A stretch of DNA of 64,000 nucleotides from Candidatus Shapirobacteria bacterium. GTDB lineage: Bacteria; Patescibacteriota; Microgenomatia; UBA12405. Location: contig JACPHO010000002.1 of assembly GCA_016188545.1 (NCBI GenBank), positions 13 through 64,012 on the forward strand. Direction: 5' to 3'. Below, in pieces: positions 10,664 to 60,896 of this stretch (positions are counted from its first letter, which is position 1; every line of letters starts with the position of its first letter). The notes beneath the pieces are model-generated. The model did not search any database, had not been told where the DNA came from, and worked only from the letters and a program-made list of their open reading frames with translations. Made by a program: the position numbers and the translations under genes.

Positions 10664-10730
10664 CCTCCTTCGCTTTGCTACGGCGGATAAACCCACCTTC
10701 GCGAAGACAACGCTTCGGCGGGTAAATCGG
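10664..10730. repeat. tandem pair of CC(N)CC...CGGCGG hairpin repeats (family also at 47005, 56886 and 60836)
   Basis: cctccttcgctttgctacggcgg followed by cccaccttcgcgaagacaacgcttcggcgggtaaatcgg. The gcgggtaaatcgg tail is identical to that at 47023-47037. Confidence 0.6.
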
Positions 10731-10786
10731 ACCAGCCTTCACTCCTTAGGAGTTACGGCTTGGCACAGTAGTAGTTTTAACAATAT

Positions 10787-10873
10787 GGAGAGGTCGGATA
10801 GTGGTTCATTCCACAGACCTGGAAAGTCTGCGCCGTAAAAAGCTCGCGGGTTCGAATCCCGCCCTCTCCGCCA
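10787..10873 (+). tRNA. tRNA-Ser (anticodon GGA), CCA encoded
   Basis: Acceptor GGAGAGG/CCUCUCC. Anticodon stem CAGAC/GUCUG with loop CUGGAAA. Long variable arm. T-arm GCGGG-UUCGAAU-CCCGC. 3' GCCA. Confidence 0.8.
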
Positions 10874-11059
10874 ATTTTCAGTTGTTCCCTACAGTTCCAT
10901 GTAATATAGGGAATGCAGCTCTCCAAACCAATAATTCGTTTGTTCCTGTTTAGCTTTTTTACCCGTAGGACGTTTTTTTAGAAATACACGTCTGACTGGT
11001 TAAAATATACCCGTAGGACGTGTATTGACAAATCTACGTCCAACGGGCATAATAGTTTT

Positions 11060-12028
11060 ATGAAGGTATTTTTGTCAAACCAGGGAAACTTAAGAAACTT
11101 TAAGAGTTTTACAGAATCCATAGACTTATCTCATCCAGATAAATTGGAAATAACAACTCACGATAAATGGGTAACAGTTCATCCAGCAAATCTGGTTTTG
11201 GCAGCTGCGTTAGCGATGAAAGTTGGCAAGGATAATACAGAAATTACAGGTAAAGTTCCTGAAACCGGACGATATTTAGACAGAATGGGACTTTATGAGT
11301 TAACTAAGACATCTTCGCCGTTTATATATAGGAAAAAGGAAGAGGCGGGAAGGTTTTTGCCGATTAAAGTGATAAAAGACTCTCAGGGTCAATCTCGTTT
11401 TATTACGGACATGGTACCTCTACTACATCTATCCGAAAAAAATGCCACAGTAGTGAAATATATTATTGGAGAGCTAGTTAGAAATGTTCTTGAACATTCT
11501 TTTGCGGATGATGGGGCAATTGTGGCCGCTCAATACTATAAAAAGACCAACCGGGTGAGTATAGGTATTTGTGACACAGGTATAGGTATCTGGAAGAGTA
11601 TGTGGAAATATTGGAGACCAAAAACTGACATTGATGCAATAAAATTAGCTTTGACTCCGGGAATTACTGGTACTACGCGAAGGGAAGGTGGTACATCCGA
11701 AAATGCAGGGGCTGGATTATTTTTTATAAAATCAATTGCAAAAATATCGCGTAACTATTTTGTAGTTTATAGTGGAAGTGCAGAATATACATTATTAAAA
11801 CATGACAAAAGAGTAAAGAATAAACCCAGGCTTTATGCTGATCCGAACCGAGATCCCCACAGTGAAACAAATACCTCTTCTGATTTTCAAGGTACTTTGG
11901 TAGCAGTAGATATTTCATTGGATGAGACTCCGGAATTTAATGATTTGTTAGCAAGTATTGGCGAGGTATACCACCAAGCAATTCGTGAACGTAAAAAAGA
12001 GAAATATAGAAAGCCAAAGTTTATATGA
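11060..12028 (+). CDS. GHKL-type (histidine-kinase-like) ATPase domain protein
   Basis: N-box ELVRNVLEHS, G1 box DTGIGI and G2 box GAGLFFIKS. There is no HisKA/DHp domain and no TM segment. Confidence 0.6.
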   Translation: MKVFLSNQGNLRNFKSFTESIDLSHPDKLEITTHDKWVTVHPANLVLAAALAMKVGKDNTEITGKVPETGRYLDRMGLYELTKTSSPFIYRKKEEAGRFLPIKVIKDSQGQSRFITDMVPLLHLSEKNATVVKYIIGELVRNVLEHSFADDGAIVAAQYYKKTNRVSIGICDTGIGIWKSMWKYWRPKTDIDAIKLALTPGITGTTRREGGTSENAGAGLFFIKSIAKISRNYFVVYSGSAEYTLLKHDKRVKNKPRLYADPNRDPHSETNTSSDFQGTLVAVDISLDETPEFNDLLASIGEVYHQAIRERKKEKYRKPKFI

Positions 12029-12336
12029 AAAAAATCATTAAAATACTAAAACAAACCGGTGACTTTGCTGAAAACAAAGATGTGGCAAAGGACTTAAGAT
12101 TGAAAAAAATTATGCCGGCTCTATTAAAGAGTAATGGAGTTATTTTGGACTTCAAGGGTGTTAATGGTGCAACACAATCTTTTATTCACGCCTTAATTAG
12201 TGATCCAATTCGTGAATTAAAAGACAGGGCTTTCGATAATCTGTCTTACAAAAACACAAATGATGCTATTCGTGAGATTATTTCCATTGTTTATCGTTAT
12301 ATGCAGGAAAGTTTAGATGGAAATGACGATAAATAA
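12025..12336 (+). CDS. STAS-like (DUF4325-like) small protein, translationally coupled to the GHKL ATPase
   Basis: 103 aa. ILDFKGVNGATQSFIHALI resembles the STAS-like DUF4325 core. Its start overlaps the upstream stop (ATGA). Confidence 0.5.
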   Translation: MKKIIKILKQTGDFAENKDVAKDLRLKKIMPALLKSNGVILDFKGVNGATQSFIHALISDPIRELKDRAFDNLSYKNTNDAIREIISIVYRYMQESLDGNDDK

Positions 12337-12338
12337 AA

Positions 12339-12390
12339 AAATAGGTTCTAACCGCATCAGTGGTTCACCACCAATTTAGAAAAGCGAGTA
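12339..12390. repeat. degenerate copy of the 'ataggttct...atggttcgccgc' intergenic repeat (full copies at 17691 and 18422)
   Basis: aaataggttctaaccgcatcagtggttcaccaccaat versus aataggttctggctgcgcact...atcaatggttcgccgctcaat. In each case a TATAAT box follows ~20-40 nt downstream. Confidence 0.45.
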
Positions 12391-12437
12391 AATCCTGCAA
12401 AAGTCATCGCAATTAGTTTCGAGAGTATAATGTTGAT

Positions 12438-13289
12438 GTGGAATATAAAATAAGACAGGCAACGAGAGAGGAATTGGACATTGCCGTAGGATGGGCTGCA
12501 AAAGAAGGGTGGAATCCGGGACTTGGAGACGCGGAGGTGTTCTGGAAAACAGATCCAGAAGGATTTGTAGCACTGGAAGTGGATGGAGAGATGGTGGGGA
12601 GCGGATCAATTGTGTCATATGGTGGGAAGTTTGGTTTTATGGGATTTTTTATCGTAAAGCCTGAATTCAGAGGTAAAGGTTGGGGGACAAAATTGTGGCA
12701 CTGGAGGCGAGATAAACTGTTGAGTCGATTGAATAAAGGAGCACCAATAGGAATGGATGGAGTTTTTGCTATGCAACCTTTTTATGCCAAAGGCGGCTTT
12801 GTATTGGCTCACCGAGATATGAGAATGGAGGGGGTGGGTAAAATAATGCAATTTAGCGAAAACGTTAAAGCAATTGAGGTTGATGATTTGGATGAAATAA
12901 GCAGCCTTGATGTCAAGTTTTTCGGGTATGAGAGAAGAACCTTTTTGCAAGGCTGGCTATTGATGAATAACAGCCAGGCTTTGAAATATGTTGATGGTGG
13001 GGAGATTAAAGGATATGGAGTAGTAAGAAAATGCCAAACAGGCTATAAGATTGGACCACTATTTGCTGATAATTATGAGGTAGCTGATGAGCTGTTTAGG
13101 GCTATGTCAACTTTTGCTGATGGTGAGCCGATTTATTTGGATGTCCCAGAGATAAATATTGATGGCATGAAACTGGCTAAAAACTACAATATGAAAGAGT
13201 GCTTTGGGTGTGCGCGGATGTATTACAGTCAAGCCCCGGCGTTACCGTACGACAAGATATTTGGGGTAACATCATTTGAGTTGGGCTAG
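12438..13289 (+). CDS. GNAT family N-acetyltransferase with a C-terminal accessory domain
   Basis: The acetyl-CoA binding region (FFIVKPEFRGKGWGTKLW) matches the GNAT Q/RxxGxG/A motif. Confidence 0.7.
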   Translation: MEYKIRQATREELDIAVGWAAKEGWNPGLGDAEVFWKTDPEGFVALEVDGEMVGSGSIVSYGGKFGFMGFFIVKPEFRGKGWGTKLWHWRRDKLLSRLNKGAPIGMDGVFAMQPFYAKGGFVLAHRDMRMEGVGKIMQFSENVKAIEVDDLDEISSLDVKFFGYERRTFLQGWLLMNNSQALKYVDGGEIKGYGVVRKCQTGYKIGPLFADNYEVADELFRAMSTFADGEPIYLDVPEINIDGMKLAKNYNMKECFGCARMYYSQAPALPYDKIFGVTSFELG

Positions 13290-13338
13290 ATCAAAGAATG
13301 CCCAAAAAGTAAACCTCAAATCGGATCAGTTCAGAAAA

Positions 13339-15570
13339 CTATAAATATTTTCCTGTCCACGATCTATCGCATTTTTTAATATCTTGGACTGTCCCCTGTG
13401 CCACTATCTCTCCGCCTTTGTCGCCACCTTCTAGCCCCATATCAATTATCCAATCGGCTTTTTTAATTACCTCTAAATTGTGCTCGATAACAAGTACAGT
13501 ATTGCCACTATCCACCAGTTTGTTTAACAATCTCATTAATTTCTCGACATCGGCAAAATGAAGGCCTGAGGTTGGTTCGTCCAAAATATAAAATTCACCT
13601 TTGTTTTGGAGTCGACTAGCCAACTTTAGTCTCTGACCTTCCCCTCCTGACAAAGTGTCCAGAGTCTGACCAAGTTCCAGATAATCTAGGCCAACATCTA
13701 GAAGCATTTTTAGGCCATCATTTATCGACTTTTGATTAAATAAATCACATGCTTCTATGGCGGTTATATCTAATATTTGGTCAATACTTTTGCTTTCAAA
13801 TTTATAATTCAAGACTTCTGGTTTATACCTTTTGCCATTACATTTATCGCACTTCATTTTGACATCTCCCAAAAAGTTCATATCCATTTCGATGAACCCC
13901 AAACCCTTACACTTGGGGCAACAGCCAGACTTGCTATTGAAACTAAATAGTGATGGGTTAACCTTGTTCTCACGGGCAAACAAATTCCTGACCTCATCAA
14001 ATATTCCCACATACGTAGCAATACATCCCCGCCGATTGTTGCCGATACTATTTTGGCCGACTAAGACTACTTTGTCTTGATGTTGAGCGACAATTTCCTC
14101 GACCAGAGAACTCTTGCCGGCACCTGACACACCAGTCAGGGCCACTAACAATCCTTTTGGGATGTCGACACTTATATTCTTTAAATTATTTCTATTGGTG
14201 GATTCGATTTTTAATAAGCCAGTGGGCTTTCTTGATTGTCTTATTGAGGTTTCTCCATTTGTCTGTCGATTCAAATACTTTGCTGTCAGCGACTTGTCAC
14301 TTTTTAACATTTCATCTTTTGTTCCGGCAAACACTATCTCTCCACCTTTCTGGCCACCACCGGGGCCAACCTCAACAATGTAGTCCGCCGCTCGGATTAC
14401 ACTTTCATCATGTTCGACAACTAAAACGCTATTGCCACTATCTCTCAATCTTTTTAAGTTGCCAACCACAAGTTCTAAATCTCTGGGGTGTAATCCAACT
14501 GTGGGCTCGTCCATGACATAAATCGTCTCTATCAAGTCACAGCCTAATTGTCGGGCTAATTTGACTCGCTGGGCTTCCCCTCCTGACAGAGTGTTGGTTG
14601 AGCGGTTGAGCGACAAATAACCGATACCAGCGTCGACTAAAAACTTTAGTTGTTCTAGTAATCTTGGCTTAATCACAATAGCATTTCGGTGGTCAATGCC
14701 TTTAATAAAATCCAAAGCTTCAGTTATGGGCATATTGGCTACTTGGCCAATATTTTTATTATTTATCAACACGGCTAGCGAATCTTTTTTGAGTCTCCAC
14801 CCCTGACACATCGGACAATCAACATAATTAAAATATTTCATTTCCTCTTCATTAACATGGCGACTAACGCTTGAACCGCGATTATTTAGATGAGTCACTA
14901 TTCCTTGATACATGGGCATGACTACCCCGTCATCATTATTGTTGGCTCTCTGCTTGGGGGCGGACATTAGCTTCTCAAATTCTTCGGGAGTATAGTCTCT
15001 GACCTTTTTATCCATGTCGAAAAAACCGGTCGACTTGATGATCTTCCAATACATCGATTTTACCCGCCAATTACTATACAAAATTGCCCCTTCATTAAGA
15101 CTTTTATTCACATCTATCAGCTTACTGGTATCTATGTCCATGGCTCTACCCAAACCCTTGCACTTGGGACAGGCACCAAGAGGATGGTTGAAAGAATAAT
15201 AGGACGAGTCAAATATCGGCCGACCAGCACGAGAATAGAGAAGACGAAGATAAGTGTAGGTTTCGGTAATGGTACCAACTGTTGACCGCTGGCTTTGATG
15301 CATTCTGTCTTGACTGATAATCACAGTTGATGAGATACCTTTTAAATCTTGCACGTCAGGACGGTTACTTTTTTGAAGATAGCGACGGGCCTGACTACTT
15401 AAACTTTCAAAGTACTGGCGCTGACCCTCGCGGGCAATGACATCAAAAGCAATGGTGGACTTACCACTCCCAGACACGCCAACAAAACAGACAACTTTGT
15501 TGCGTGGTATGGCTAAATCTATATTCTTAAGATTATTCTCTTTGGCGCCTTTGATGACGATGTTATCCAT
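13339..15570 (-). CDS. UvrA-like ABC ATPase (short UvrA paralogue, class II/drug-resistance type)
   Basis: 743 aa with two ABC modules (GVSGSGKST and GVSGAGKSS; signatures LSGGE.QR). Zn-finger CxxC pairs are present. It is shorter than canonical UvrA (~940 aa). Confidence 0.85.
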   Translation of the reverse strand: MDNIVIKGAKENNLKNIDLAIPRNKVVCFVGVSGSGKSTIAFDVIAREGQRQYFESLSSQARRYLQKSNRPDVQDLKGISSTVIISQDRMHQSQRSTVGTITETYTYLRLLYSRAGRPIFDSSYYSFNHPLGACPKCKGLGRAMDIDTSKLIDVNKSLNEGAILYSNWRVKSMYWKIIKSTGFFDMDKKVRDYTPEEFEKLMSAPKQRANNNDDGVVMPMYQGIVTHLNNRGSSVSRHVNEEEMKYFNYVDCPMCQGWRLKKDSLAVLINNKNIGQVANMPITEALDFIKGIDHRNAIVIKPRLLEQLKFLVDAGIGYLSLNRSTNTLSGGEAQRVKLARQLGCDLIETIYVMDEPTVGLHPRDLELVVGNLKRLRDSGNSVLVVEHDESVIRAADYIVEVGPGGGQKGGEIVFAGTKDEMLKSDKSLTAKYLNRQTNGETSIRQSRKPTGLLKIESTNRNNLKNISVDIPKGLLVALTGVSGAGKSSLVEEIVAQHQDKVVLVGQNSIGNNRRGCIATYVGIFDEVRNLFARENKVNPSLFSFNSKSGCCPKCKGLGFIEMDMNFLGDVKMKCDKCNGKRYKPEVLNYKFESKSIDQILDITAIEACDLFNQKSINDGLKMLLDVGLDYLELGQTLDTLSGGEGQRLKLASRLQNKGEFYILDEPTSGLHFADVEKLMRLLNKLVDSGNTVLVIEHNLEVIKKADWIIDMGLEGGDKGGEIVAQGTVQDIKKCDRSWTGKYL

Positions 15571-15614
15571 AGGTGTGATATAATAACCTATTACGTTACG
15601 TTATAGTCAATAAG

Positions 15615-16400: not shown

Positions 16401-16402
16401 GA

Positions 16403-17689: not shown

Positions 17690-17701
17690 AATAGGTTCTG
17701 G

Positions 17702-17758: not shown

Positions 17759-17773
17759 GGTATAATTAGCCAG

Positions 17774-46321: not shown

Positions 46322-46948
46322 TCACTTGGCTTTTGAGATGGGGGAGAAGGAAAACCGATGAATGGGACATGGTCCATATTTTTTGATCGCTTCAAGGTGG
46401 GTTTTGGTGCCATAGCCTTTGTGGGCAGAAAAACCATAGTCTGGAAAATCTTTGTCGCACTGATCCATTTGTTGATCCCGGTCGACTTTGGCGACAATAG
46501 AGGCACTGGCAATGCTAAAACATTTTTGGTCACCTTTAATTATTGATTGCGTGTTAATAAGTTTATTAACATTATAGTTGCCATCAATAAGGCAATAATC
46601 AAAATTAGTACGATAGAACTTTAGAGCTTTGGTAATTAAAGAATAGATACAAATAGCTATCCCCTGTTTGTCTATTTCGACTGAGGTAGAAGAAAAAGTT
46701 GTAAATCGGTGACCTGAATTAAGAAAATGTTCGTGGATTTTTTGGCGTTTTTGAGCAGAAAGTAATTTGGAATCACGAACCCCAAGATTGATGAATTCCT
46801 GAGGATCAAATGTATGAAGATCAAGCAGAAAGGCACCGATGGTTACCGATCCAGCAAAAGGTCCCCTACCAACCTCATCGATACCTAGCAGATAGCGACA
46901 GTCAGATGGAAGTTGTGATTTTTCAAACTTAAAATCAGGAAGATTCAC
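46322..46948 (-). CDS. rnhB: ribonuclease HII
   Basis: LLGIDEVGRGPFAGSVTIGA and downstream RNase HII catalytic motifs. Confidence 0.85.
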   Translation of the reverse strand: MNLPDFKFEKSQLPSDCRYLLGIDEVGRGPFAGSVTIGAFLLDLHTFDPQEFINLGVRDSKLLSAQKRQKIHEHFLNSGHRFTTFSSTSVEIDKQGIAICIYSLITKALKFYRTNFDYCLIDGNYNVNKLINTQSIIKGDQKCFSIASASIVAKVDRDQQMDQCDKDFPDYGFSAHKGYGTKTHLEAIKKYGPCPIHRFSFSPISKAK

Positions 46949-47004: not shown

Positions 47005-47037
47005 GCCCGCCGTCGCCATGCTACGGCGGGTAAATCG
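47005..47037. repeat. CCCGCC...GGCGGG hairpin repeat with a gtaaatcgg tail
   Basis: cccgccgtcgccatgctacggcgggtaaatcgg. Related to the elements at 10664-10730, 56886-56927 and 60836-60896. Confidence 0.6.
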
Positions 47038-47089
47038 GTGGTGGAACACTAGTTTGCTGTGGAAAAGAGATGGTACTTAAGGCAGAATA

Positions 47090-47138
47090 GTTGTTTCGCC
47101 CGAAGGCTCATCAGGTCCGATAGATTTCGGACTACAAC
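47090..47138 (-). ncRNA. hammerhead ribozyme, type III (stems I and II closed, stem III open)
   Basis: Minus strand reads GUUGUA|GUCCGA-aaucua-UCGGAC-CUGAUGA-GCC-uucg-GGC-GAAA-CAAC. All core nucleotides are present (CUGAUGA, GAAA, U16.1-A15.1, H17=A). Stem I is 6 bp, stem II 3 bp with a UUCG loop, stem III 5 bp. Confidence 0.65.
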
Positions 47139-47336
47139 ATCTTCTAGGCTCGCGAATGGGGTCAGGCTGCTGCCTGACCCCAGAAGTTTCGCGATACCCA
47201 GAAGGGAATTCAAGGTATATATAAAGCCATACATTTATAACAACTCCGAGTCGGTTTTTTATGTCCACAAGCACTGAGGCTGGACTAGATGGGAGTCGGG
47301 AATGTTCCCCTATGGCGTTGTGGGGAATAGGATAAA

Positions 47337-48098
47337 TTACTTGGCTTCGGAAGTGCCCATGTACTTGGCAACCAAGTCAGAAGCGGAAGGTGTTTCGACT
47401 TCTGTGCCCAAAGCGCGGAGCTTGGCATCTGCACGACGGCGAGCGATCTTGAGATTCGCTTCATCTTCGTAAGTCTTTGCTTCGGCTTCTGCGTTCTGAA
47501 GAATCTCTTCAGCCTTCTGCTGATTGCGCTGACTGCCAGCTTCATCGAGATCGGCGATGATACGGTAGATTTCCTTGCCGGAAGAAGCACTGGCAGCGCG
47601 AGAACGGGCTTCTGCGAGCTTGGACTTGCGGACCTTGATCTCAGTGTCGAGGGCGTCAATGTCAATATCGAGTTTCTTGACACGAGCGTCGGCAGCCTCA
47701 TAACGAGTCCGAATTTCAGCCGAGTCTTCCTGAGCAGTCTGCATCTTTTCAACAGCTTCCTTCACGGATGCTTCGTCACCCAACTTACCGGCACGTTTTG
47801 CGGCGCGGTCCATGGTGGAGATTTCGTCATCGAAGGGTTTCAACTGTTCAAGAGCGAGATTGCGGGCGGTTTTCAGCTCAAGCAGATGGGTTTCCGATCT
47901 GGACTTGGCGAGTTCTGCCGCTGCAACTGCTGCTTCTTGACGGGCGACAGCGGAGTCGAGCTTGCGGATGACGACACTGCGCATGTGAAAAAGACGGACG
48001 CGAATGACATCAGCGAGGGCATCCGGGCTGGCAAAAAGCCAAATGACGAACAGGGCAGCGAGAATGATCTGGACGGTGGGATTCATTAGGTATTGCAT
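47337..48098 (-). CDS. membrane-anchored coiled-coil protein, PspA/IM30-like (or ATP-synthase-b-like); first gene-end of the GC-rich operon
   Basis: N-terminal hydrophobic helix, then ~220 aa of heptad-rich Ala/Glu/Arg/Lys sequence. GC content is clearly higher than the surrounding sequence. Confidence 0.45.
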   Translation of the reverse strand: MQYLMNPTVQIILAALFVIWLFASPDALADVIRVRLFHMRSVVIRKLDSAVARQEAAVAAAELAKSRSETHLLELKTARNLALEQLKPFDDEISTMDRAAKRAGKLGDEASVKEAVEKMQTAQEDSAEIRTRYEAADARVKKLDIDIDALDTEIKVRKSKLAEARSRAASASSGKEIYRIIADLDEAGSQRNQQKAEEILQNAEAEAKTYEDEANLKIARRRADAKLRALGTEVETPSASDLVAKYMGTSEAK

Positions 48099-48170
48099 TT
48101 TTTCATCTCCAAAAGTTAGTTTATTTGACGATATGACATTACGACACAGAGAACTGTTTTGTTGACCTCC

Positions 48171-48788
48171 TTATGATCCGACTCTGAGAATGATGGCAAC
48201 CGCGACGAACTTGACGACGGCAACCAAGATGGCATGCGAGTCATTGTCCTTTTCAACCATCCATTCATTGAACTTGTCGAGACTGCGGATGCCTGAAAGA
48301 TAGGCAATGATGAAGGTGATGATGTCACCAATCATCTCGCCGACGGCGCCGCGAGTCAGGACAGCAAAGATGAACATGTCGGGGGTTGAGGCATCTAACA
48401 CCGTAGCAACTTGCCAGCCGGAAAGCAAAATCCCCGCGAGAATGATCACGTGGGAATTGTTGCGTGCGGCATCGAGCTGACCACGAAGTGTAATGGCACC
48501 CCTTCGGTTCCAGGGCCAGCGAAGCAGCGGGGTATCCATGACATGTTCGAAAGAGATGAAAGTCATGATCAACACATAAGCGACGAAGACCCCACCGCGA
48601 ACCTTGAGACCAATGAGAAATCCTTTGGTCAGGAACGCGAAGAGATCATTGATGGACTGTCCGCTGGGAGCGAAAAAGTACAAACCAGCAGCGAATGCAA
48701 GCGAAAGCAACACAAACTTGAGAAGTAGGTATGCCTTGCCGGAAATTCCGTTTTGTTCCATGGTTTCTCCAAACTTATGCCATAGCAC
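48171..48788 (-). CDS. polytopic membrane protein, hypothetical (GC-rich island)
   Basis: 205 aa with four or more hydrophobic segments. Confidence 0.4.
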   Translation of the reverse strand: MLWHKFGETMEQNGISGKAYLLLKFVLLSLAFAAGLYFFAPSGQSINDLFAFLTKGFLIGLKVRGGVFVAYVLIMTFISFEHVMDTPLLRWPWNRRGAITLRGQLDAARNNSHVIILAGILLSGWQVATVLDASTPDMFIFAVLTRGAVGEMIGDIITFIIAYLSGIRSLDKFNEWMVEKDNDSHAILVAVVKFVAVAIILRVGS

Positions 48789-49554
48789 GGGTCATTTCGC
48801 CAATGAATGGGTCAATCGACTCGCCTAGATAGACTCCTTCGGTCCAGAGATAATCTGTGCCGCTGAAGTGGTTGGTGAATAAGACAGTATTCCCTTGTGG
48901 ATCTTCACCCAAAAGGTACTTGACTTTCATGGCATCTGGGGAGGGTAATGTGCCACCGCGAGTCTCGACTTCAAAGTAGCCGACGTCGACCACAGTGATA
49001 TCAATTCCCAGAGTTTTGAAAGTATAGCTTCGTGCTTCCTGATCGTATGGCGGATGGCTGAATACCTCACCGGCTTTGTTGAAATCTTCGCCTCCTTGCG
49101 GGGAAACGGAGACACGCTTCTTTAGCGTAAAGCCGTAGTAGCCTTCCGGTCGGTGAATGATCATGGTGCCGTTATCAAAAACACGGACAGACCACTCTTC
49201 ACCACGACGGGAATAAATTTGGGTATTGGGGCGGCGATTGAGCCCGTGGAAAATTCCAAACGCGGAGAGAGTCACTTCGATCTTTCGACCTGACTCGCGA
49301 AGCGCAAGTTCCACCATTTCGCCAACACGCAAATCTTCAAAACGATCATTTGCCGGAGCTTCTGCGGGCACACGCTGGTCTTTTAGATCATCACGAAGAT
49401 TTTCCAGTTCTTGTGTTGATTTTGTAGCCGAGCGTATGAATGTCTGCAGGGTATCACGGAAGTTCCGTATTCGTGCAGGATTGGTCAGCAGGAATCCAAT
49501 TCCAATGATGATCAACCCGACGACTCCAGAACCAATACAAAGATTTCCTGACAT
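48775..49554 (-). CDS. membrane-anchored hypothetical protein (GC-rich island)
   Basis: N-terminal TM helix, a short coiled coil, then a ~180 aa globular domain. Confidence 0.4.
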   Translation of the reverse strand: MSGNLCIGSGVVGLIIIGIGFLLTNPARIRNFRDTLQTFIRSATKSTQELENLRDDLKDQRVPAEAPANDRFEDLRVGEMVELALRESGRKIEVTLSAFGIFHGLNRRPNTQIYSRRGEEWSVRVFDNGTMIIHRPEGYYGFTLKKRVSVSPQGGEDFNKAGEVFSHPPYDQEARSYTFKTLGIDITVVDVGYFEVETRGGTLPSPDAMKVKYLLGEDPQGNTVLFTNHFSGTDYLWTEGVYLGESIDPFIGEMTRAMA

Positions 49555-49566
49555 ATTGTTCCTCTC

Positions 49567-50760
49567 TTAGAATCCATCACCAGAATCTTGTGAATCACTT
49601 CCTCCAAAACCATCACCAGAATCTTGTGAATCGTATCCACCGAAGCCATCGTCCGAACTACCGCAACAATCACTTCCACTGTCAGACGAACCGCTATCAC
49701 CTCCATACGACGGTGATCCAGTCGAACTGGTGTCATCATCAGGAGGATCATATGGAACGGCTGTGGGTGGAGGCTCTTGGGCGTCGTCGTAACTCTGGTT
49801 GGCGTAGCTAGTGCAATTTGAAACATGCGTACTGACGCTCGAGAAATCCTGAGCGTAGCAAGCATTGAGCGCAAGCTGTTTTTCGGTCACAGCACTGTCG
49901 TAGTTACTTTGCGCTCCGTACGAATCATAGGCACCTATTAATTCTCCACCTGCTCGGGTTATGGACGCTTGACAGCTAGCAATCTCTAGAGGAGCATTGT
50001 CAGCTTCAGATGATAGATTGTCCGCTGTTGAAGACGCGTTTTGGGCGGTAATACTTGCCTGTTGCGCTTGATCATAAACGAGCGGCTTATCCACAACTCC
50101 TTCAGGGAGGGTGGTTCGGAATGTTACTTTGGCGACATTGTCGAGTTGACTTTGCGCTTGGGTTAGATACGTCATTGCGGAGGCATAAGACAAGGTTCCT
50201 TGACCGCAGAGGCTTTTTGTTGGCATTGCTGCAACGTAGAGAGTCTCTGTATCGATCACTTTCTGAACCTCGCCAATGTACCCACGATCCACAGCCTCAG
50301 ATTTTGCTTGAAGTTGTGAATAATATGACGGTGGACCCAAAATCTGGACTATGATCTGTTCGGCATTTCTTAACTTGATGTCGGCTTCTTCCCAATAGTA
50401 GCGGGCAGAGTCACGATCATCACTATCAAGAGAGCTTTGGGCTTGGGCTTGCAACGCCTGAACAGAACCTTGAAGATTTGACCTCGCTGTGGACAGCTGA
50501 GTATCAAAACCTTCACTCCAATGCCTGGCGTACTTTGGCGACTGCTCGATAAATTCCTTTTCAGCGCTGGGTAGCTGAACGTCTAGTGAGACTCTGCGGG
50601 TTTCGAGTTCGGCGATTTTTGCCGTTAGATCCCGAAGCTCTGCAGCGTCAAAGGCGTTCATAATTAAACCTGACGCGATTAAGAACAAACAGAACAGAGC
50701 GCTGTACAACCAGACACGGTCGTCAACTAGAGGTTGACTTCGTGCTAAGTTGTTTCGCAT
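49567..50760 (-). CDS. membrane-anchored coiled-coil protein with an acidic Ser/Asp/Gly-rich repetitive C-terminus (GC-rich island)
   Basis: N-terminal TM helix. Coiled coil. C-terminal (DSQDSGDGFGG)x2, encoded by a ~36 bp tandem DNA repeat at 49571-49640. Confidence 0.4.
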   Translation of the reverse strand: MRNNLARSQPLVDDRVWLYSALFCLFLIASGLIMNAFDAAELRDLTAKIAELETRRVSLDVQLPSAEKEFIEQSPKYARHWSEGFDTQLSTARSNLQGSVQALQAQAQSSLDSDDRDSARYYWEEADIKLRNAEQIIVQILGPPSYYSQLQAKSEAVDRGYIGEVQKVIDTETLYVAAMPTKSLCGQGTLSYASAMTYLTQAQSQLDNVAKVTFRTTLPEGVVDKPLVYDQAQQASITAQNASSTADNLSSEADNAPLEIASCQASITRAGGELIGAYDSYGAQSNYDSAVTEKQLALNACYAQDFSSVSTHVSNCTSYANQSYDDAQEPPPTAVPYDPPDDDTSSTGSPSYGGDSGSSDSGSDCCGSSDDGFGGYDSQDSGDGFGGSDSQDSGDGF

Positions 50761-52852: not shown

Positions 52853-52873
52853 TAATACTACGACAGCTGTAGT

Positions 52874-53470: not shown

Positions 53471-53475
53471 TAGGT

Positions 53476-54717: not shown

Positions 54718-54778
54718 AGCTGATTGTAACAAAGTCACCTGAAAGTTGACTACTACATGTGTAAGTGGTGCTAGAATC

Positions 54779-55963
54779 ATGACAATGGATTTCTCGAGAA
54801 ATATCAGGTTATTAACGTGGCAGGGATTTTTTATTGGCTTTAGTTTGTGGTCGCCAATTGCGGCGATTTATTTTTCTCAAGTCAGTGGATCGTTCGCTTG
54901 GGGGTTGAGTATTTTTTCGGTTGCGAATATTAGTGGGGCAATTTTTGAAATTCCAACTGGTGTTTTTTCTGATTTTTCTGATAAGATAGGTCGAAAATAT
55001 ACTACTATGCTGGGTGGATTAGCTTATACTTTGTCGGGGGTAGCCTATGCGATAGGACTAAATTTTTGGTGGTTAGTATTGGGTGCAATACTGGGAGGAT
55101 TGGGCCGTTCTTTTTATAGTGGAAATAATGATGCCTACTTATATGATAGCCTGAATAAATCAGACAAGAAAGAAGAATTGGCAAAATTTATGGGTAAAAT
55201 TGGGTCAGCAGAACAATGGGCACTAGGAGCGGCGGCGATACTGGGAGGAATGCTGGCGGCAATTTCTTTTAAGTTGGTAATGTGGCTGTCAGTGATTCCC
55301 CTACTTCTGTGCTTTGTCACCAGTTGGTGGCTAATTGATATAAAAAATAAAAAAGGAGAGGAAGGAGGTAATGTTTATTCACATTTAAGCGAAGCTATAA
55401 AAAATTTCCTTGGTAATAAAAAACTACGGTTGTTAAGCTTGTCTTCGATTGTGGGATTTGGAATTGGAGAAGCAGGGTTTCATTTTAGATCGTTGTTTGT
55501 ATTGAGCCTGTGGCCACTTTGGGCTATCGGAGTGGCTAGGATGCTAAGCAATATCGGGGCAGCGATTGGATTTGGATGGAGTGGAAAGATAGTGGAAAAG
55601 TTTAAGGCGGAAAGAGTGTTGATGTTTGAGCAAATATCGTCAAAGTTGATTGATCTAGTAGCTCTATTGTGGCCAACGCCACTATCACCGGTTTTGATGT
55701 CAACAACATCGATAATGTACGGTCCAAGTACTGTAGCAGAAAACTCGATTTTTCAAAATGAATTTACCGATAAGCAAAGAGCAACCATGGGTTCTCTAAA
55801 CTCTCTAGGAAGAAGTATATCGTTGGCAATATTTATTTACGGGTTGGGCTGGGTTGCTGATAAAACAGACCCGCGAATTGCCCTATTGTGCGGGTGGACA
55901 CTAGGACTAGTATCGGTATGGTTGACGTGGAAGTTGATGCAAATGGTGAGAAAAGAAGGTTGA
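54779..55963 (+). CDS. MFS transporter (paralogue of 34849)
   Basis: IFEIPTGVFSDFSDKIGRK, NEFTDKQRATM, and 12 TM segments. Confidence 0.7.
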   Translation: MTMDFSRNIRLLTWQGFFIGFSLWSPIAAIYFSQVSGSFAWGLSIFSVANISGAIFEIPTGVFSDFSDKIGRKYTTMLGGLAYTLSGVAYAIGLNFWWLVLGAILGGLGRSFYSGNNDAYLYDSLNKSDKKEELAKFMGKIGSAEQWALGAAAILGGMLAAISFKLVMWLSVIPLLLCFVTSWWLIDIKNKKGEEGGNVYSHLSEAIKNFLGNKKLRLLSLSSIVGFGIGEAGFHFRSLFVLSLWPLWAIGVARMLSNIGAAIGFGWSGKIVEKFKAERVLMFEQISSKLIDLVALLWPTPLSPVLMSTTSIMYGPSTVAENSIFQNEFTDKQRATMGSLNSLGRSISLAIFIYGLGWVADKTDPRIALLCGWTLGLVSVWLTWKLMQMVRKEG

Positions 55964-56017
55964 GAGGAAAATAATGGTTATATTGACATTCGGGTTATAT
56001 TCGGCTTAATATTGTTT

Positions 56018-56821
56018 ATGAATAAAATTGCAGTGATAAGTAAGGACTTGGAGGGAATTAAGAAAATTAAAAACGATTTGGAATACTGGTCGGCAAGAGA
56101 TTTGATGAAGGTGTTGGGATATGAAAAGTGGCAAAAGTTTGAGATGGTGATTAAAAAGGCTAAAAGTGCTTGCACTGAAAGCAATCATGATGTTATGGGT
56201 CATTTTATCGGCACCGGTAAGAAGATAAGTACCGGAAAGACAGCACAAATGGAGATTCGTGATTTTTTATTAACTAGATACGCCTGTTATCTGATAGCTC
56301 AAAATGGCGATAGTCGAAAACCGGAAATTGCTAGAGCGCAAACATACTTTGCAGTGCAAACTCGAAAACAGGAAATGCAGCAAGATAGGGAGAAACTATT
56401 AAAAAGGATTGAAGCTCGAGAGAGACTAAAAGAAACGGAAAGAAAGATTGAGGGGACAGTTTACAAAAGAGGGATAAAACAACCAAGGGATTTTGCTGAA
56501 TTTAAAGATAAATATATTCGAGGATTGTATGGTGGAATGGGAATTACGACATTGAAGAATAAACGGAAAATACCAAAAGATAGAGCTTTGGCCGACTTTG
56601 ATTCTTTTTTGGAATTGAAAGCAAAGGATTTTGCTCTGGCTATGACAGATCATAATATCAAAGAGAAAAACTTGGTTGGTAAGCCAAAACTAAATCAGGA
56701 AGTTTATGAGAACAGTGTGGCGACTCGGAGAACTCTCCTAAAACGAGGAATATTGCCGGAAAAATTAAAACCGGAAGAAGATGTTGAGAAAGTAAAGGGT
56801 AAGCTAAGCTTAAAAGGCTAA
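56018..56821 (+). CDS. dinD: DNA-damage-inducible protein D homologue (Bro-N-like N-terminal domain)
   Basis: YWSARDLMKVLGY...W.KF..VI.KA..AC......HF...........DFLLTRYACYLIAQNGD..KPEIA.AQTYFAVQTR follows the E. coli DinD pattern closely. Confidence 0.7.
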   Translation: MNKIAVISKDLEGIKKIKNDLEYWSARDLMKVLGYEKWQKFEMVIKKAKSACTESNHDVMGHFIGTGKKISTGKTAQMEIRDFLLTRYACYLIAQNGDSRKPEIARAQTYFAVQTRKQEMQQDREKLLKRIEARERLKETERKIEGTVYKRGIKQPRDFAEFKDKYIRGLYGGMGITTLKNKRKIPKDRALADFDSFLELKAKDFALAMTDHNIKEKNLVGKPKLNQEVYENSVATRRTLLKRGILPEKLKPEEDVEKVKGKLSLKG

Positions 56822-56885
56822 CAAGATTCCAACGAGATTGCCGCGCCTGCCTGCCGGCAGGCAGGTCACTGTGATAACCGTTCCC

Positions 56886-56927
56886 CCATCCTACGCTGAA
56901 GCTTCCACCTTCACTTCGCTATGGTGG
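56886..56927. repeat. tandem hairpin repeat units of the CC(N)CC...GG(N)GG family
   Basis: ccatcctacgctgaagcttccaccttcacttcgctatggtgg. Preceded at 56849-56871 by a perfect palindrome, cctgcctgccggcaggcagg. Confidence 0.5.
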
Positions 56928-56965
56928 ACAAGTCGGACTGTCAAAGCGTAATGACGTGTGAGTTT

Positions 56966-57496
56966 TTATAGCTTAAAAATCAGCTTGAAGATGAGAGTGG
57001 TGAGAATGACGAGACCGACAGGAAAGACAACCTTGGCATATGGGAACAGGGTCTTGCCGTCATTGCGATACTTGGTAAAACCATAAATAAAGTTACCTAG
57101 AAACATCACAAACATACCCAAGGTTTGACCAAAAAGGATCTTGTCAAAGCCAAGAAATTTATTGCCAGTGACGCCAAGTTGGTCGGTGAAGTAAAAGTAG
57201 GATATGGTGGTAGCGAACATGATAAATGAGAATATCCAAGGGTTGTGCAGAAATTTTGGACGAAGGGCCTTATCTTTCATACCTGTGGCCATCCAAAAAG
57301 AAAGAGCGGTATTGAGAGCGCTAATCCAGATGCTGACTAAAAAGTCATCGACACCAAGCTTTTTGGCAATTAACATTCCTCCACCAACAGTAACAACACA
57401 GACAGGGCATTGAGCGGAGACTGGTATGGCGGAAAGTAAAAAGTAAAAAGTAAAAAGTAAAAAACTGATTAACAAATTCATAAAATATTTTAACAA
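56966..57496 (-). CDS. membrane protein with an N-terminal CPVC motif, divergent from the DsbA-like gene
   Basis: Four or five TM segments with CPVC just after TM1. Codons 10-20 are encoded by the (aagtaaa)4 repeat. Confidence 0.4.
   Translation of the reverse strand: MLKYFMNLLISFLLFTFYFLLSAIPVSAQCPVCVVTVGGGMLIAKKLGVDDFLVSIWISALNTALSFWMATGMKDKALRPKFLHNPWIFSFIMFATTISYFYFTDQLGVTGNKFLGFDKILFGQTLGMFVMFLGNFIYGFTKYRNDGKTLFPYAKVVFPVGLVILTTLIFKLIFKL
57434..57461. repeat. heptanucleotide tandem repeat (AAGTAAA)x4 inside the 5' end of a CDS
   Basis: aagtaaaaagtaaaaagtaaaaagtaaa. The unit length is 7 (not a multiple of 3), so unit gain or loss would shift the frame. Confidence 0.85.
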
Positions 57497-57533
57497 AAAT
57501 AATATAATAACTACAAGTGTAGTAAGATGGTGG

Positions 57534-58376
57534 TTGACAGAAATGAACTTGATCGGTAGAGTAATAGATAATATGACAGATAATAAAAAAACAATTGAGG
57601 TATCTCAAAGTGCGGTTTTGTTTGCAGGTGTAGTGATGATGGCAATGATGGGTTTTGGTGGATATTTGTACGGAAAAGTGAAAGGGCTCGAAAAAGCAGG
57701 CACTGCAGCAGCAGCTCCAGCAGCCCAGCAACAACAGCAACCACAAGTGACAGTGACCCGTGACCAACTTGAAGGATTGTTTGATGGAAAAACATTGGCT
57801 TTTGGTAAAAAGGATAGCAAATTGATTTTTGTAGAATTTTCTGATCCTTCATGCCCTTATTGTCATGTAGCTGCGGGTAAAAATGCATCTCTAAACAAAC
57901 AAATGGGGCAACAGTTTATGTTGAAAGCAGATGGTGGGACATACGTAGCTCCAGTACCTGAGATGAAAAAGCTTGTTGATGAAGGTAAGGCATCAATGGT
58001 GTGGGTCTATGCTAATGGACATGGAAATGGAGAACTGGGAACCGAAGCTCTATACTGTGCTAATGAGAAAGGTAAATTCTGGGAAGTTCACGACACTCTA
58101 ATGAGTGCTGAAGGCTATGAGATTCTAAATACCTCAGTCAAGAACGATAGAACACAAGCTGCTAAAATGGCTGACTTCTTGAAAAAAGCTGTTGATTCTA
58201 AATTTATGGAGTCTTGTCTTAAAGATGCCAAGTACAAAGACAGGCTGACTACCGACATGGAAACAGCTACCAAATTTGGATTTAGCGGAACCCCAAGCTT
58301 CTTTGTAAACACGCAGAACTTTGCTGGAGCTTATAGCTATACCGAAATGGAGAAGCTAGTTAATGACTCGATCTAA
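57534..58376 (+). CDS. DsbA-like thiol:disulfide oxidoreductase, membrane-anchored
   Basis: N-terminal TM helix, a Gln/Ala linker, the thioredoxin-fold CxxC active site SCPYCH, and a DsbA-like helical insertion. Confidence 0.7.
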   Translation: MTEMNLIGRVIDNMTDNKKTIEVSQSAVLFAGVVMMAMMGFGGYLYGKVKGLEKAGTAAAAPAAQQQQQPQVTVTRDQLEGLFDGKTLAFGKKDSKLIFVEFSDPSCPYCHVAAGKNASLNKQMGQQFMLKADGGTYVAPVPEMKKLVDEGKASMVWVYANGHGNGELGTEALYCANEKGKFWEVHDTLMSAEGYEILNTSVKNDRTQAAKMADFLKKAVDSKFMESCLKDAKYKDRLTTDMETATKFGFSGTPSFFVNTQNFAGAYSYTEMEKLVNDSI

Positions 58377-58395
58377 TTAAAGAGTTAACTACAAA

Positions 58396-58426
58396 CCGCT
58401 CCGAAAGCTTTCGGAGCGGTTTTTTG
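58396..58426 (+). terminator. rho-independent terminator of the DsbA-like gene
   Basis: ccgctccgaaagctttcggagcgg followed by a T-run. Confidence 0.8.
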
Positions 58427-58466
58427 TTGCTAAAAGCCCACCCGAAGTTGGTGCTATAATCGGGCT

Positions 58467-58700
58467 ATGACACCAACTCTGGACAAGTCGCAAGCTGAGC
58501 TATATGGATTAAAACCGGGTGATAGAGTGTTGGCGGTAACAAGAATGGGGGCGCAATCGTTGAATGATGACATATCGAGATTTAAATCAGGTTTTTGTCG
58601 AATTGAGCAACTCCAAGTATTAAACCCTGACGGAACTCCGGTAAGTGATAAAGCCGCAGTGGTGATTATTGGAAGAGTAAGGGCTGTGCCAACTAAGTAA
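58467..58700 (+). CDS. small hypothetical protein
   Basis: 77 aa ORF. Confidence 0.3.
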   Translation: MTPTLDKSQAELYGLKPGDRVLAVTRMGAQSLNDDISRFKSGFCRIEQLQVLNPDGTPVSDKAAVVIIGRVRAVPTK

Positions 58701-58744
58701 AGAGGACGTAATTGTTGATTGCAATTTAATCCTATAATGTGATA

Positions 58745-58915
58745 GTCTACAAACTATGATACATATTTGTTCGCTTCAATTTAGACAGTCCAAGGACGCC
58801 GTCAATGGCGGAAGCTTTGGTGCCAATTACACCAAACCCGAGGACGCATATGGAGATACTGTCTAAGAATAGGACGAATTGAATTAGATAAGCCTCCGAA
58901 AGGAGGCTTTTTTAG
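58745..58915 (+). ncRNA. candidate small structured RNA with its own promoter (TATAAT at 58733) and intrinsic terminator
   Basis: A closing stem tagacagt...actgtcta (58771/58853). Internal hairpins gccg-tcaat-ggcg and ggtg-ccaatta-cacc. Duplicated GGACGC motifs. Terminator aagcctccgaaaggaggcttttttt at 58890-58913. Confidence 0.35.
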
Positions 58916-59081
58916 TAACTTTTTCCCAATAAAAATACTTGATCCCCTTTTTCGGAGGTTTTTCCAACTCAATCCTGAGTAATCAGGAGACTGTTCTGGG
59001 AAATAGTCAGAGTTGAGAAACGTAAAACCGATGGTTAACGTTTCGTGCGCGTACGTTAAAAATTTGAAAAAGGAGAAAACG

Positions 59082-60239
59082 ATGAACAAAACAACTGAAA
59101 AAGCGTTTGTGGTCGCCAAAATTTTGGAGTCCACTTCTGCTGCCTGGTTTTTTGGAACATACATTTTGTTCCTTCAAGGACTAGGGATCGATCTACTGTC
59201 AGCTAGTCTTCTGAACAGTATCTTCATGGGACTATCATCGGTACTGGACCCTTTCACGGGAAACTTAGGTGACCGGATTGGACAAAAAAGAATCTACCTG
59301 TTTGGTTTACTAATGTGGTCACTGAGCCATATAGTCTACTGGATGTCAGGTGGATTCTGGGGGTGTGCTGTGGCTGAGATAATCGGAGCGGTGGGACTAG
59401 CTTCCCGTTCGGAAGCACTAGAAAGCTGGCTACGTAACCATAGTACCGAGGAGAAAACCCACAAAGCGATGGCTCAAGGGGCTTACTACGGTAGACTAGC
59501 AACAATTCCAACAGCAATACTAGGTGGAATAATCGGGGCTAGATGGGGATTGGAATGGCCTTGGTTGATATCTGGAGTCACTGGAATTATGGCGATGGTG
59601 ATGATTGGTATCTGGTTAAAAGATATTCCGGAAAAGCCAATAGATCACGTAGCCACAAGTTCAGATCTACAAATCTGGAATATTGCCAAGGATGCGTGGA
59701 AAGATCCTATTTTGCGAAGAACATTCATATTCACTGCACTGATGGTGGCCTGTTTTCAGCCATTTAATATGTTTTGGCCGGTGATCTTTCGGGATGCTAC
59801 CGGACAAGCACAGTGGCTGGGATCAATGTGGATTGGAATAGCCCTAGCATCAGCCTTAGGAAGTAAACTCGCCGAAAAATGGGTGATAAATTCTAAAGGA
59901 TTGGCAGTGATTGTCCTAAGTATTGGGATTCCAATGCTTCTTACACCAATTAGAGGCAGCTGGATTATTATGCTACTGATTCCGTTTGTAATTCACGAAA
60001 TTGGACGGAGTATGTGGCTACCAATACTGTGGAGTTATACCAACCGCAGAATCAGCAACCATATCAGGACATCGGTGAACTCTCTTCGGTCTAGTGCCGG
60101 TACAACAGGAGCAGTCTTAGGACTACTGGTGTCCGGAGCCCTAACCAAATTGATAACACCAACCCAAGTATGGGGAGTGTCGGCAGTAGTGCTGATATTA
60201 GTCGCCTATTGGGTTTATGGATGGAATCATGATGTGTAG
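59082..60239 (+). CDS. MFS transporter
   Basis: 12 TM segments and a GDRIGQKR loop motif. Strong SD (aaggag) 8 nt upstream of the ATG. Confidence 0.7.
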   Translation: MNKTTEKAFVVAKILESTSAAWFFGTYILFLQGLGIDLLSASLLNSIFMGLSSVLDPFTGNLGDRIGQKRIYLFGLLMWSLSHIVYWMSGGFWGCAVAEIIGAVGLASRSEALESWLRNHSTEEKTHKAMAQGAYYGRLATIPTAILGGIIGARWGLEWPWLISGVTGIMAMVMIGIWLKDIPEKPIDHVATSSDLQIWNIAKDAWKDPILRRTFIFTALMVACFQPFNMFWPVIFRDATGQAQWLGSMWIGIALASALGSKLAEKWVINSKGLAVIVLSIGIPMLLTPIRGSWIIMLLIPFVIHEIGRSMWLPILWSYTNRRISNHIRTSVNSLRSSAGTTGAVLGLLVSGALTKLITPTQVWGVSAVVLILVAYWVYGWNHDV

Positions 60240-60306
60240 TTACGAGACTGGTATCCCAGTACCAGTCTCGGGTAAGTCAAGATGATTTGTTTCCGGAACC
60301 AAAAAT

Positions 60307-60777
60307 ATGTTAGTATTGCTAAATATGGATACACTTAATAAATTCCCATTTGATGCTGATGCTGTGGCAGATTTTAGTTTTGATTTAACTAAAACTGATG
60401 CTCAGGGTAAGGCTGAGTTTAAAAACTTATTTAATAGCTTGGTTCAGGTTAGTCAAAACAAAACTGTCAGAGTAGAGAGATGGACTCATCCAGCAGGTGA
60501 AGATGGCAAATGGGATCGAGTTGGCGGTGCATACCTAGGTAATCAGGTAGAGGTTGGTCAAAACAATGATCAATTAGCGATAGTTCTACAAGATGACGGT
60601 AGTGTAACTAGAATACCTGCTGGAAGAATGGATGGTGAATCTAACTTTCAAAGCTATGGAAACGATGGTTTGGCCATTGGGTGGAATGAAGATGATGGAT
60701 CGAGAAGTGGACTGACTTTTGTACCAGAGAATTTTGCACCAGACACAAGACCAATACCCGAACCTTCCCAACAATAA
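60307..60777 (+). CDS. hypothetical protein
   Basis: 156 aa ORF followed by an intrinsic terminator. Confidence 0.4.
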   Translation: MLVLLNMDTLNKFPFDADAVADFSFDLTKTDAQGKAEFKNLFNSLVQVSQNKTVRVERWTHPAGEDGKWDRVGGAYLGNQVEVGQNNDQLAIVLQDDGSVTRIPAGRMDGESNFQSYGNDGLAIGWNEDDGSRSGLTFVPENFAPDTRPIPEPSQQ

Positions 60778-60789
60778 TTTTTAAGTTAA

Positions 60790-60818
60790 ACCCGCCGATG
60801 TGGCGGGTTTTTTTTGTT
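60790..60818 (+). terminator. rho-independent terminator
   Basis: cccgccgatgtggcggg followed by T8. Confidence 0.8.
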
Positions 60819-60835
60819 TACGTGTACCTGCTTTT

Positions 60836-60896
60836 CCACCTACGCTTTATAAAAAGACATAAGTGGACCGATCCGCCTACGCTATTGCTACGGCGG
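60836..60896. repeat. tandem hairpin repeat units (ccacctacgct...gtgg and ccgcctacgctattgctacggcgg)
   Basis: Same family as 10664, 47005 and 56886. Confidence 0.55.

Follow-up and report, generated by a model that had tools for sequence, protein, structure and literature searches.

The window analysed here is a 64-kb stretch of DNA, part of a 129-kb contig in a Candidatus Shapirobacteria metagenome-assembled genome (MAG) of the Candidate Phyla Radiation (CPR; Patescibacteria), and it carries a short GC-rich hairpin repeat at four loci, which we designate A to D. Its GC content is about 40%, and its GC skew is positive all along the + strand. By a regular-expression scan and manual reading, the repeat unit comprises a stem of 5–6 bp, CC(C)GCC/GGCGG(G), with the general form CC(N)CC...GG(N)GG. 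Inside the stem is a symmetric 3 × 3 internal mismatch, (T/G)WC on both sides and mostly TWC/TWC, followed by a 2-bp GC mini-helix and a loop of 3–4 nt that is longer in certain copies. A tail, (G)TAAATCGG, often occurs 3′ of the hairpin. The GC-rich palindrome is imperfect and has a core of about 26 bp, the whole repeat measuring about 25–37 bp; units in the window span 23–31 bp, and every unit of the four loci lies on the + strand.

Locus A is flanked by a NUDIX gene on the left and by tRNA-Ser(GGA) (10787–10873) on the right. It comprises unit A1 (10664–10686), unit A2 (10692–10722), which has an enlarged loop and is followed by the tail TAAATCGG at 10723–10730, and A3 (10732–10763), a third, degenerate unit that was overlooked in a first-pass annotation of the window. 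Unit B (47006–47030; CCCGCC-GTC-GC-CAT-GC-TAC-GGCGGG), with the tail TAAATCGG at 47031–47038, resides between the genes for RNase HII (46322–46948, − strand) and a PspA-like protein (47337–48098, − strand). At locus C, between a Bro-N (‘dinD’-like) gene on the left and an unannotated minus-strand open reading frame (ORF) on the right, a 5′ half-unit, C1 (56886–56905), is fused to C2 (56905–56927; CCACC-TTC-AC-TTC-GC-TAT-GGTGG), which carries the tail ACAAGTCGG at 56928–56936. Locus D follows a canonical terminator (60788–60810) and precedes a 33-codon Cys-rich ORF; its unit D1 (60836–60866) is degenerate, with a long AT-rich loop, and its second unit is D2 (60873–60896; CCGCC-TAC-GC-TATT-GC-TAC-GGCGG). 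The first-pass description of all copies as lying at gene 3′ ends fits A, C and D but not B, which runs antisense to the genes on either side, with 59 nt between it and the RNase HII start codon downstream.

The same annotation had proposed that the elements at the four loci are related, and we found its quoted sequences where it had placed them, including an identical 13-mer tail, gcgggtaaatcgg, common to 10718–10730 and 47026–47038. The shared motifs are enriched over shuffled sequence: with at most one mismatch, GCTACGGCGG has seven matches in the window against 0.94 expected, a count reached by none of 100 shuffles, and CCNCCTWCGC has four against 0.42 expected. The tail 10-mer by itself shows no enrichment, with four matches and 3.9 expected. 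We built a covariance model, R1, from 23 units, four window copies among them. The four best window copies, all of them members of the training alignment, score 37–48 bits (A1, 41.1; B, 47.9; C2, 37.3; D2, 39.4), and the next window match scores 12 bits. R1 found no match in 785 kb of unrelated bacterial metagenome contigs, a background set taken from the metagenome scan for RNase HII relatives, and the family therefore stands above chance. In C2 the stem reads CCACC/GGTGG rather than CCGCC/GGCGG, a compensatory change. These data confirm that the four loci are copies of a real GC-rich hairpin repeat family.

Comparison with relatives, represented by contigs (numbered L) at approximately 78–81% nucleotide identity, reveals the units as discrete insertions or deletions. 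For locus A, syntenic relatives were located through an ABC transporter gene (L186 and L188); those located through UvrA (L038–L041) are not syntenic at A. Neither L186 nor L188 has block A, a 123-bp insertion at 10662–10784 (+ strand) that comprises A1, A2 and A3 plus 21 nt of unrelated sequence; in them the spacer between the NUDIX gene and tRNA-Ser reads ...AGGAAGCATTTA-ATGGAGAG-GTCGG.... The site ATGGAGAG is single-copy in relatives, occurring once in L186, with ATAGGGAG at the same place in L188. In the window it stands on both sides of the block, at 10654–10661 and 10785–10792 (+ strand), and the right copy overlaps the start of tRNA-Ser(GGA) by its last 6 nt. This 8-bp target-site duplication (TSD) marks locus A as an insertion.

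At locus D, a 68-bp block (60835–60902, + strand) consisting exactly of D1 and D2 is missing from L037, a contig collinear with the window over 51–63 kb, where CCTGCTTT is joined straight to GAGAATAT. This comparison gives a clean indel with no TSD; target-site duplication, raised in the first-pass annotation as something to check, was thus borne out at A and not at D. Both features that flank D, the terminator at 60788–60810 and the small Cys-rich ORF, are conserved in L037. Locus C belongs to a block of about 1 kb (roughly 55990–56965, containing the Bro-N gene, a palindrome and the units) that is absent from the syntenic L037. For locus B no orthologous empty site was found, the RNase HII relatives in the metagenome scan having at most 44% identity. 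R1 detected no unit in about 50 kb of related Shapirobacteria contigs. Gain or loss of the element in discrete intergenic blocks, each of one to three units, is thereby shown.

The first-pass annotation had named a lack of additional copies as its refuting outcome, and the search did not refute it: there is another copy in the source genome, and many other genomes, as well as contigs of phages, have the unit. The source genome's fifth copy (L042, 10489–10519, + strand; approximately window coordinate 67923) lies 3.9 kb past the window and reads CCCTCC-TTC-GC-TAAA-GC-TAC-GGCGGG-TAA.... It occupies the linker between two HMA domains of a minus-strand copper ATPase, a homologue of which, at 78% identity, is devoid of the unit motif. 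Copies in the source genome were counted over about 68 kb, the window plus the adjoining contig, and amount to five loci, four of them intergenic, all on one strand, the G-rich and presumed leading strand. No general rule on the replication strand emerged, as GC skew puts the units on the C-rich strand in other CPR loci and on the G-rich strand in the window. The short-read (Logan) contig L042 of the source genome terminates within the fifth copy, which is consistent with a repeat that breaks assemblies.

To survey other genomes, we scanned 185,579 species-representative genomes for the 19-mer GCTWCGGCGGGTAAATCGG. There were 35 matches, with about 9 estimated by chance at uniform composition, and in 17 of the 35, from 13 MAGs, a complete hairpin lies upstream of the 19-mer; these 17 cannot be chance. 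Five of the MAGs carry the label Saprospiraceae/Chitinophagales (four of the five with two contigs apiece), and others are labelled Chlorobiaceae, Peregrinibacteria, Beckwithbacteria, Saccharibacteria, Nomurabacteria and Patescibacteria. Two more bear the label ‘uncultured Gammaproteobacteria’, to be taken with caution since their proteins are CPR-like. In viral sequence, the 26-nt core CCCGCCTWCGCNNNNGCTWCGGCGGG occurs in 26 IMG/VR contigs, many at 60–68% GC, where the tail is CAGG or CAAG and not TAAATCGG. The ORFs within 2.5 kb of viral copies include terminase gpA (5), lambda-type portal (3) and capsid (2) genes, and at least some of the IMG/VR contigs are therefore genuine phages. A search with the consensus 37-mer of PLSDB plasmids (7.3 Gb) and INPHARED genomes of cultivated phages (2.3 Gb) returned marginal partial matches only; the consensus is practically absent from both. 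Altogether, the host genomes of this near-identical 26–37-nt sequence span 33–68% GC. Units at Saprospiraceae loci lie between divergent genes, and inverted neighbouring units were seen in two viral contigs only (L050 and L057).

A second hairpin keeps company with the unit at locus C. The palindrome CCTGCCTGCCGGCAGGCAGG (56846–56865), perfect over 20 bp, lies 20 nt upstream of C1, and 37 IMG/VR contigs contain its central 18-mer, one of them, 29.5 kb long, in at least four copies. The arrangement at locus C recurs in L058, where about 22 nt separate the palindrome from a unit downstream of it. The palindrome thus resembles another dispersed hairpin ‘word’, one that is shared across lineages and accompanies the unit.

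In lower-GC loci, where ORF calls are reliable, many copies fall within long ORFs; these in-frame copies and the cross-phylum spread go beyond what the first-pass annotation had claimed. The unit is found in a variable region of GyrB before the conserved QRFKGLGEM motif, as placed by PDB alignment (L031/L036), in a loop of an S1-domain protein (L026), in the linker of the source-genome copper ATPase (L042) and in frame in a PHP-domain protein (L033). In penicillin-binding protein 2 (PBP2; L010) there are about 22 additional residues after FAP, and units also fall within the ORFs of IF-2 (L016), an alcohol dehydrogenase-like protein (L007) and a large repeat protein (L002). The gene-internal units sit in apparently tolerant loops and linkers. 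Although the consensus has a stop codon in only one of its six frames, in eight of nine robust independent cases the unit is antisense to its + orientation and read in the same frame (CC-GAT-TTA-CCC-GCC-GAA-GCC-TTG-GCG-AAG-GCG-GG), giving the peptide (A)DLPAEALAKAG. By a binomial estimate, eight of nine in one frame has p of about 1e-4 if open frames are used equally. The other two reverse frames are Arg-rich (RFTRRSLGEGG and PIYPPKPWRRR). The simplest reading of the single-frame bias is purifying selection over which insertions survive. When the encoded peptide, arranged as a synthetic tandem, was searched against a protein database, nothing scored. As a separate observation, the PHP-domain protein of L033 (4875–7304) also seems, by eye, to hold a large intein-like insertion of several hundred residues with homing-endonuclease-like sequence, outside its conserved N- and C-terminal parts.

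Pairing in the hairpin is well maintained. Over 67 copies, stem positions are paired in 97%, and double changes occur in four of the eight stem pairs (nine copies, for instance, have U-A in place of C-G as the outer pair); a recurrent CCCTCC/GGCGGG variant has one mismatch. As the alignment was selected and fitted by the model, these data support conservation of the hairpin more than they prove selection. The predicted fold is identical on both strands, at −14 to −20 kcal/mol per unit; as RNA, unit B folds at −20.1 kcal/mol (z −3.2), and the z scores of block D are −4.1 (+ strand) and −5.3 (− strand). Several copies show signs of remodelling. A second unit is nested in the loop of the first in L020, where the Saprospiraceae orthologue L007 has a plain unit, and the loops of A2, D1 and L021 are enlarged. 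L004 carries tandem half-units, with CTTCCTCCTTCGTTAAAA present twice and the 12-nt repeat CGGCGG(A/G)TAAAT four times, and its orthologue L030 differs in unit number. In many copies the tail runs on as TAAATCGGCGGGTAAA, a partial repeat of the 3′ arm. This pattern suggests a preference for hairpin loops as targets, with slippage reshaping the units afterwards.

What kind of sequence behaves in this way? We consider it probable, though well short of certain, that the units are copies of a short mobile DNA element, a non-autonomous palindrome akin to repetitive extragenic palindromic (REP) sequences and to MITEs, the miniature inverted-repeat transposable elements. The case for mobility is that block A is absent from L186 and L188 and is bounded by a TSD, that block D is a clean 68-bp indel, and that locus C belongs to a block that L037 lacks. 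Judged from these comparisons, the element appears to have inserted recently into the Shapirobacteria genome, and its near-identical copies elsewhere indicate that it has spread over phyla and phages. It would spread as selfish DNA, and the enzyme that moves it would act in trans, from a gene at another place in the genome or carried by a phage. Such an enzyme would probably recognise the hairpin with its asymmetric inner TWC/TWC mismatches; the inner motif, TWC-GC / GC-TWC, is direct and not inverted, which would make the element asymmetric and hence give it polarity. Loops of existing hairpins may be preferred as targets, with slippage then adding or removing half-units. Effects on the host, such as stabilisation of RNA 3′ ends or an altered pre-tRNA-Ser leader, would be secondary.

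Several observations weigh against a mobile element. No transposase was found among the proteins of the 64-kb window by Pfam, nor in about 68 kb of the source genome, and there is none among 111 ORFs near viral copies. The TSD is inconsistent: it measures 8 bp at A, is missing at D and could not be demonstrated at L026. This argues against any mechanism that relies solely on a standard DDE transposase, or solely on a single-strand transposase of the RAYT (REP-associated tyrosine transposase) or IS200 type. The ends of block A (TTCCTCC... and ...TTTTAACAAT) and those of block D are not terminal inverted repeats, and for neither block did we find a near-identical ‘master’ copy or a longer related element. 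At D and C, where one relative was compared, the difference may reflect loss in that relative instead of gain in the window. The S1 case (L026) is no clean insertion, as the loop of its nearest homologue is equally long and unrelated in sequence; for the same reason the TAAATC tail gains no support as a duplicated target. Lastly, a single orientation of five copies would be unexpected under purely random insertion (two-sided p of about 0.06).

A bolder version of the mobile-element explanation is that a very small, autonomous-looking jumping sequence with a core of about 26 bp has spread horizontally among CPR, Bacteroidota, Chlorobi and phages by a novel, loop-targeting mobilisation system with variable or no TSD, colonising essential genes through an innocuous Ala-rich frame. 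We regard this fuller scenario as speculative, a possibility to which we give markedly less weight than to mobility itself. If it were true, the cross-phylum identity would point to a broad-host-range vector or enzyme, possibly phage-borne, that is yet to be discovered.

The units might instead be recognised by a protein that binds specific DNA or RNA sequences: a nucleoid, recombination or partition factor, for instance, or a phage-encoded regulator. Conservation across phyla would then arise from that protein's specificity. The asymmetric inner motif TWC-GC...GC-TWC and the tail are indeed more sequence-specific than a hairpin requires, the direct half-site arrays of L004 have a 12-nt period, and the five source-genome copies share one strand. 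No candidate protein was found, however; copies in coding sequences and phage structural operons fit a regulatory site poorly, and close relatives are wholly without sites. We therefore judge a binding-site function unlikely as a full account, while noting that it is compatible with the mobile-element explanation if the binding protein is the mobilising enzyme.

Equally unlikely, in our assessment, is that the units, irrespective of how they originated, are host-kept RNA 3′-end elements which, like Escherichia coli REPs, protect mRNA from 3′ exonucleases or attenuate read-through. A, C and D are co-directional downstream of + strand genes, and C and D lie between convergent genes, a position typical of REPs (PMC3733652); each unit forms a stable hairpin of −14 to −20 kcal/mol, and stem pairing is conserved. 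Against this, two copies, B and the fifth, run antisense to the genes around them, A falls within a tRNA leader, the Saprospiraceae units lie between divergent genes, D comes after a canonical terminator and a relative manages without it, no T-tract follows the hairpins, and a generic protective hairpin needs no sequence identity across phyla. The related suggestion in the first-pass annotation, that the units are non-canonical terminators, fails on the missing T-tract, on the conserved terminator ahead of D and on B being antisense to its neighbours. A scan for intrinsic terminators found canonical sites at 58393, 58890 and 60788 and none at the units, whose tails are TAAATCGG, ACAAGTCGG and ACATAGG, and D lies directly 3′ of one that is conserved in L037, which lacks D. 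Both the RNA-stabiliser and the binding-site explanations fit the presence/absence pattern and the antisense and intragenic copies less well than a mobile element does. That hairpins arise locally through repair or replication errors (quasi-palindrome correction, slippage or templated filler DNA), their similarity reflecting a shared mutational mechanism, would account for half-unit tandem duplications, nested hairpins, variable loops, the lack of a TSD at D and the lack of identical master copies, but it is highly improbable, as it leaves unexplained both the near-identity of 26–37 nt across phyla and phages at 33–68% GC and the 8-bp target duplication at A.

Returning to the units as a mobile palindrome, we compared them with known dispersed repeats. 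REPs are palindromic repeats tagged with GTAG or CGTC, occasional copies of which lie in genes, some of these with roles in replication and repair (Di Nocera et al. 2013, PMC3733652). Their hallmark is a four-base tag, GTAG (or CGTC), left unpaired at one of the palindrome's ends, and in CGTC REPs the stems start with AT and finish with a CCA tail (PMC3733652). Like REPs and bacterial interspersed mosaic elements (BIMEs), our units are imperfect GC-rich palindromes of 20–40 bp, dispersed, mostly extragenic, often at gene 3′ ends or between convergent genes, and arranged in small mosaics. Unlike REPs, they have no terminal GTAG or CGTC, their 5′ flanks are variable, and TAAATCGG or CAGG/CAAG occurs 3′ of the stem; G(T/A)AG, in contrast to its place in GTAG REPs, appears only within the internal mismatch, on the reverse strand. 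The window clusters A1–A3, C1–C2 and D1–D2 run head-to-tail, whereas REPINs, which RAYT (Y1 HUH) transposases mobilise, are inverted doublets. The missing terminal tag and the head-to-tail clusters rule out membership in the GTAG/CGTC-tagged REP superfamilies, and the first-pass label ‘REP-like’ survives as an analogy, apt for a mobile dispersed palindrome but not for the tag. Most REP families are also lineage-specific, unlike this unit, the sequence of which is common to several phyla. Another difference from RAYT systems is the 8-bp TSD at A; no RAYT gene was seen in the roughly 68 kb read. Single-strand transposition of the RAYT and IS200/IS605 type is not known to give a target duplication. 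A REP-like element without GTAG/CGTC but with a TSD suggests a mobilising activity other than RAYTs.

With MITEs the units share small size, non-coding and non-autonomous character, insertion polymorphism between close relatives and, at A, a TSD. Unlike MITEs, blocks A and D have no terminal inverted repeats, the sole inverted repeat being the 5–6 bp unit stem; at 26–123 bp the elements are at or below the lower size limit of MITEs, no parent insertion sequence (IS) was found, and D has no TSD. A classical MITE is ruled out by the missing terminal inverted repeats and the lack of a parent IS, so that of the earlier proposal of MITE remnants the insertion polymorphism and the TSD at A stand, and the name holds by analogy only.

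Copies inside genes recall the Rickettsia palindromic elements (RPEs), reportedly described by Ogata et al. in 2000 as ‘selfish DNA in protein-coding genes’. RPE-1 is about 100–150 bp long and confined to Rickettsia. Like RPEs, our units are palindromic and occur both between genes and in frame in conserved protein genes, apparently tolerated in surface loops and linkers, a resemblance that is functional only. Unlike RPEs, the unit is about 26–37 bp (9–12 codons), is unrelated in sequence and is found in several phyla and in phages. Yeast and fungal mitochondrial GC clusters are short, GC-rich, palindromic mobile sequences of AT-rich genomes, intergenic and occasionally in coding sequence; they belong to another domain of life and are unrelated in sequence, so this, too, is an analogy only. 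In Rfam, only tRNAs were found in the window at gathering thresholds, and the near-consensus copies of L004 and L007 were unmatched at E up to 5. Literature searches by nucleotide strings or encoded peptides returned only primers, unrelated matches or nothing, and those by keyword only the RPE and mitochondrial analogues. A similarity to 16S rRNA (shared GGCGAAGGCGG) was dropped as too short to be meaningful.

Dispersed palindromic repeats, including intragenic ones, are already known (REPs, RPEs; PMC3733652). What appears to be new is this family, its presence in CPR, the near-identity of 26–37 nt across phyla and phages, and the single-frame bias in essential genes. The genomes of CPR/Patescibacteria are small, and dispersed repeats are not a known feature of them. 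If the sharing of a micro-element with Bacteroidota, Chlorobi and phages is real, it would mark horizontal DNA traffic among episymbionts, free-living bacteria and viruses of the same habitats. There are practical consequences as well. The unit breaks short-read assemblies, one source-genome contig terminating within a copy, and it creates spurious ORFs and short in-frame insertions in marker proteins (GyrB, IF-2, S1), affecting alignments and phylogenies. It also marks variable junctions of gene-cassette gain and loss.

The surroundings of the loci have features of their own. At locus C, the Bro-N gene (56012–56821) has its own promoter-like site, and its block is inserted between a convergent pair of genes, which in L037 overlap each other. 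Another Bro-N gene (9099–10139, − strand) adjoins locus A. A tRNA-Arg(CCG) gene (9986–10058, + strand) falls within the 5′ part of this long minus-strand ORF, which as listed is probably too long, its true start lying downstream, with the Bro-N domain beginning only at residue 91.

To the right of locus B, four successive minus-strand genes (47285–50760) have a GC content of 46–49%, against about 40%, and a flat GC skew; one has a weak PspA/IM30 match and three have no Pfam match. With unit B and a hammerhead at its edge, the segment may be a horizontally acquired island. The hammerhead (47088–47140, − strand) is a complete type III core, 49 nt from unit B and downstream of the PspA-like gene, with stem I GUCCGA/UCGGAC, CUGAUGAG, stem II GCC-UUC-GGGC, CGAAAC and a 5-bp stem III. 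Its score against Rfam Hammerhead_3 is 24.8 bits, below the gathering score of 48.5 (local E = 0.005), so that a standard scan misses it.

Around locus D, three more segments of the window are missing from L037: 60278–60781, with a 156-amino-acid ORF; 61066–62490, with a PIG-L and SNase gene pair; and 58429–58712, 283 bp with a small ORF. The region from 56 to 63 kb is therefore a hotspot of small gene-cassette gain and loss. The 33-codon ORF next to D (60911–61012, − strand), which is also called in L037, encodes MTNKKTDQKVTTTPESTEGGCCGGNCHCNCGDE, a Cys-rich, metallothionein-like peptide. It lies a few kilobases from a copper P-type ATPase, and the end of block D is 8 nt from its stop codon.

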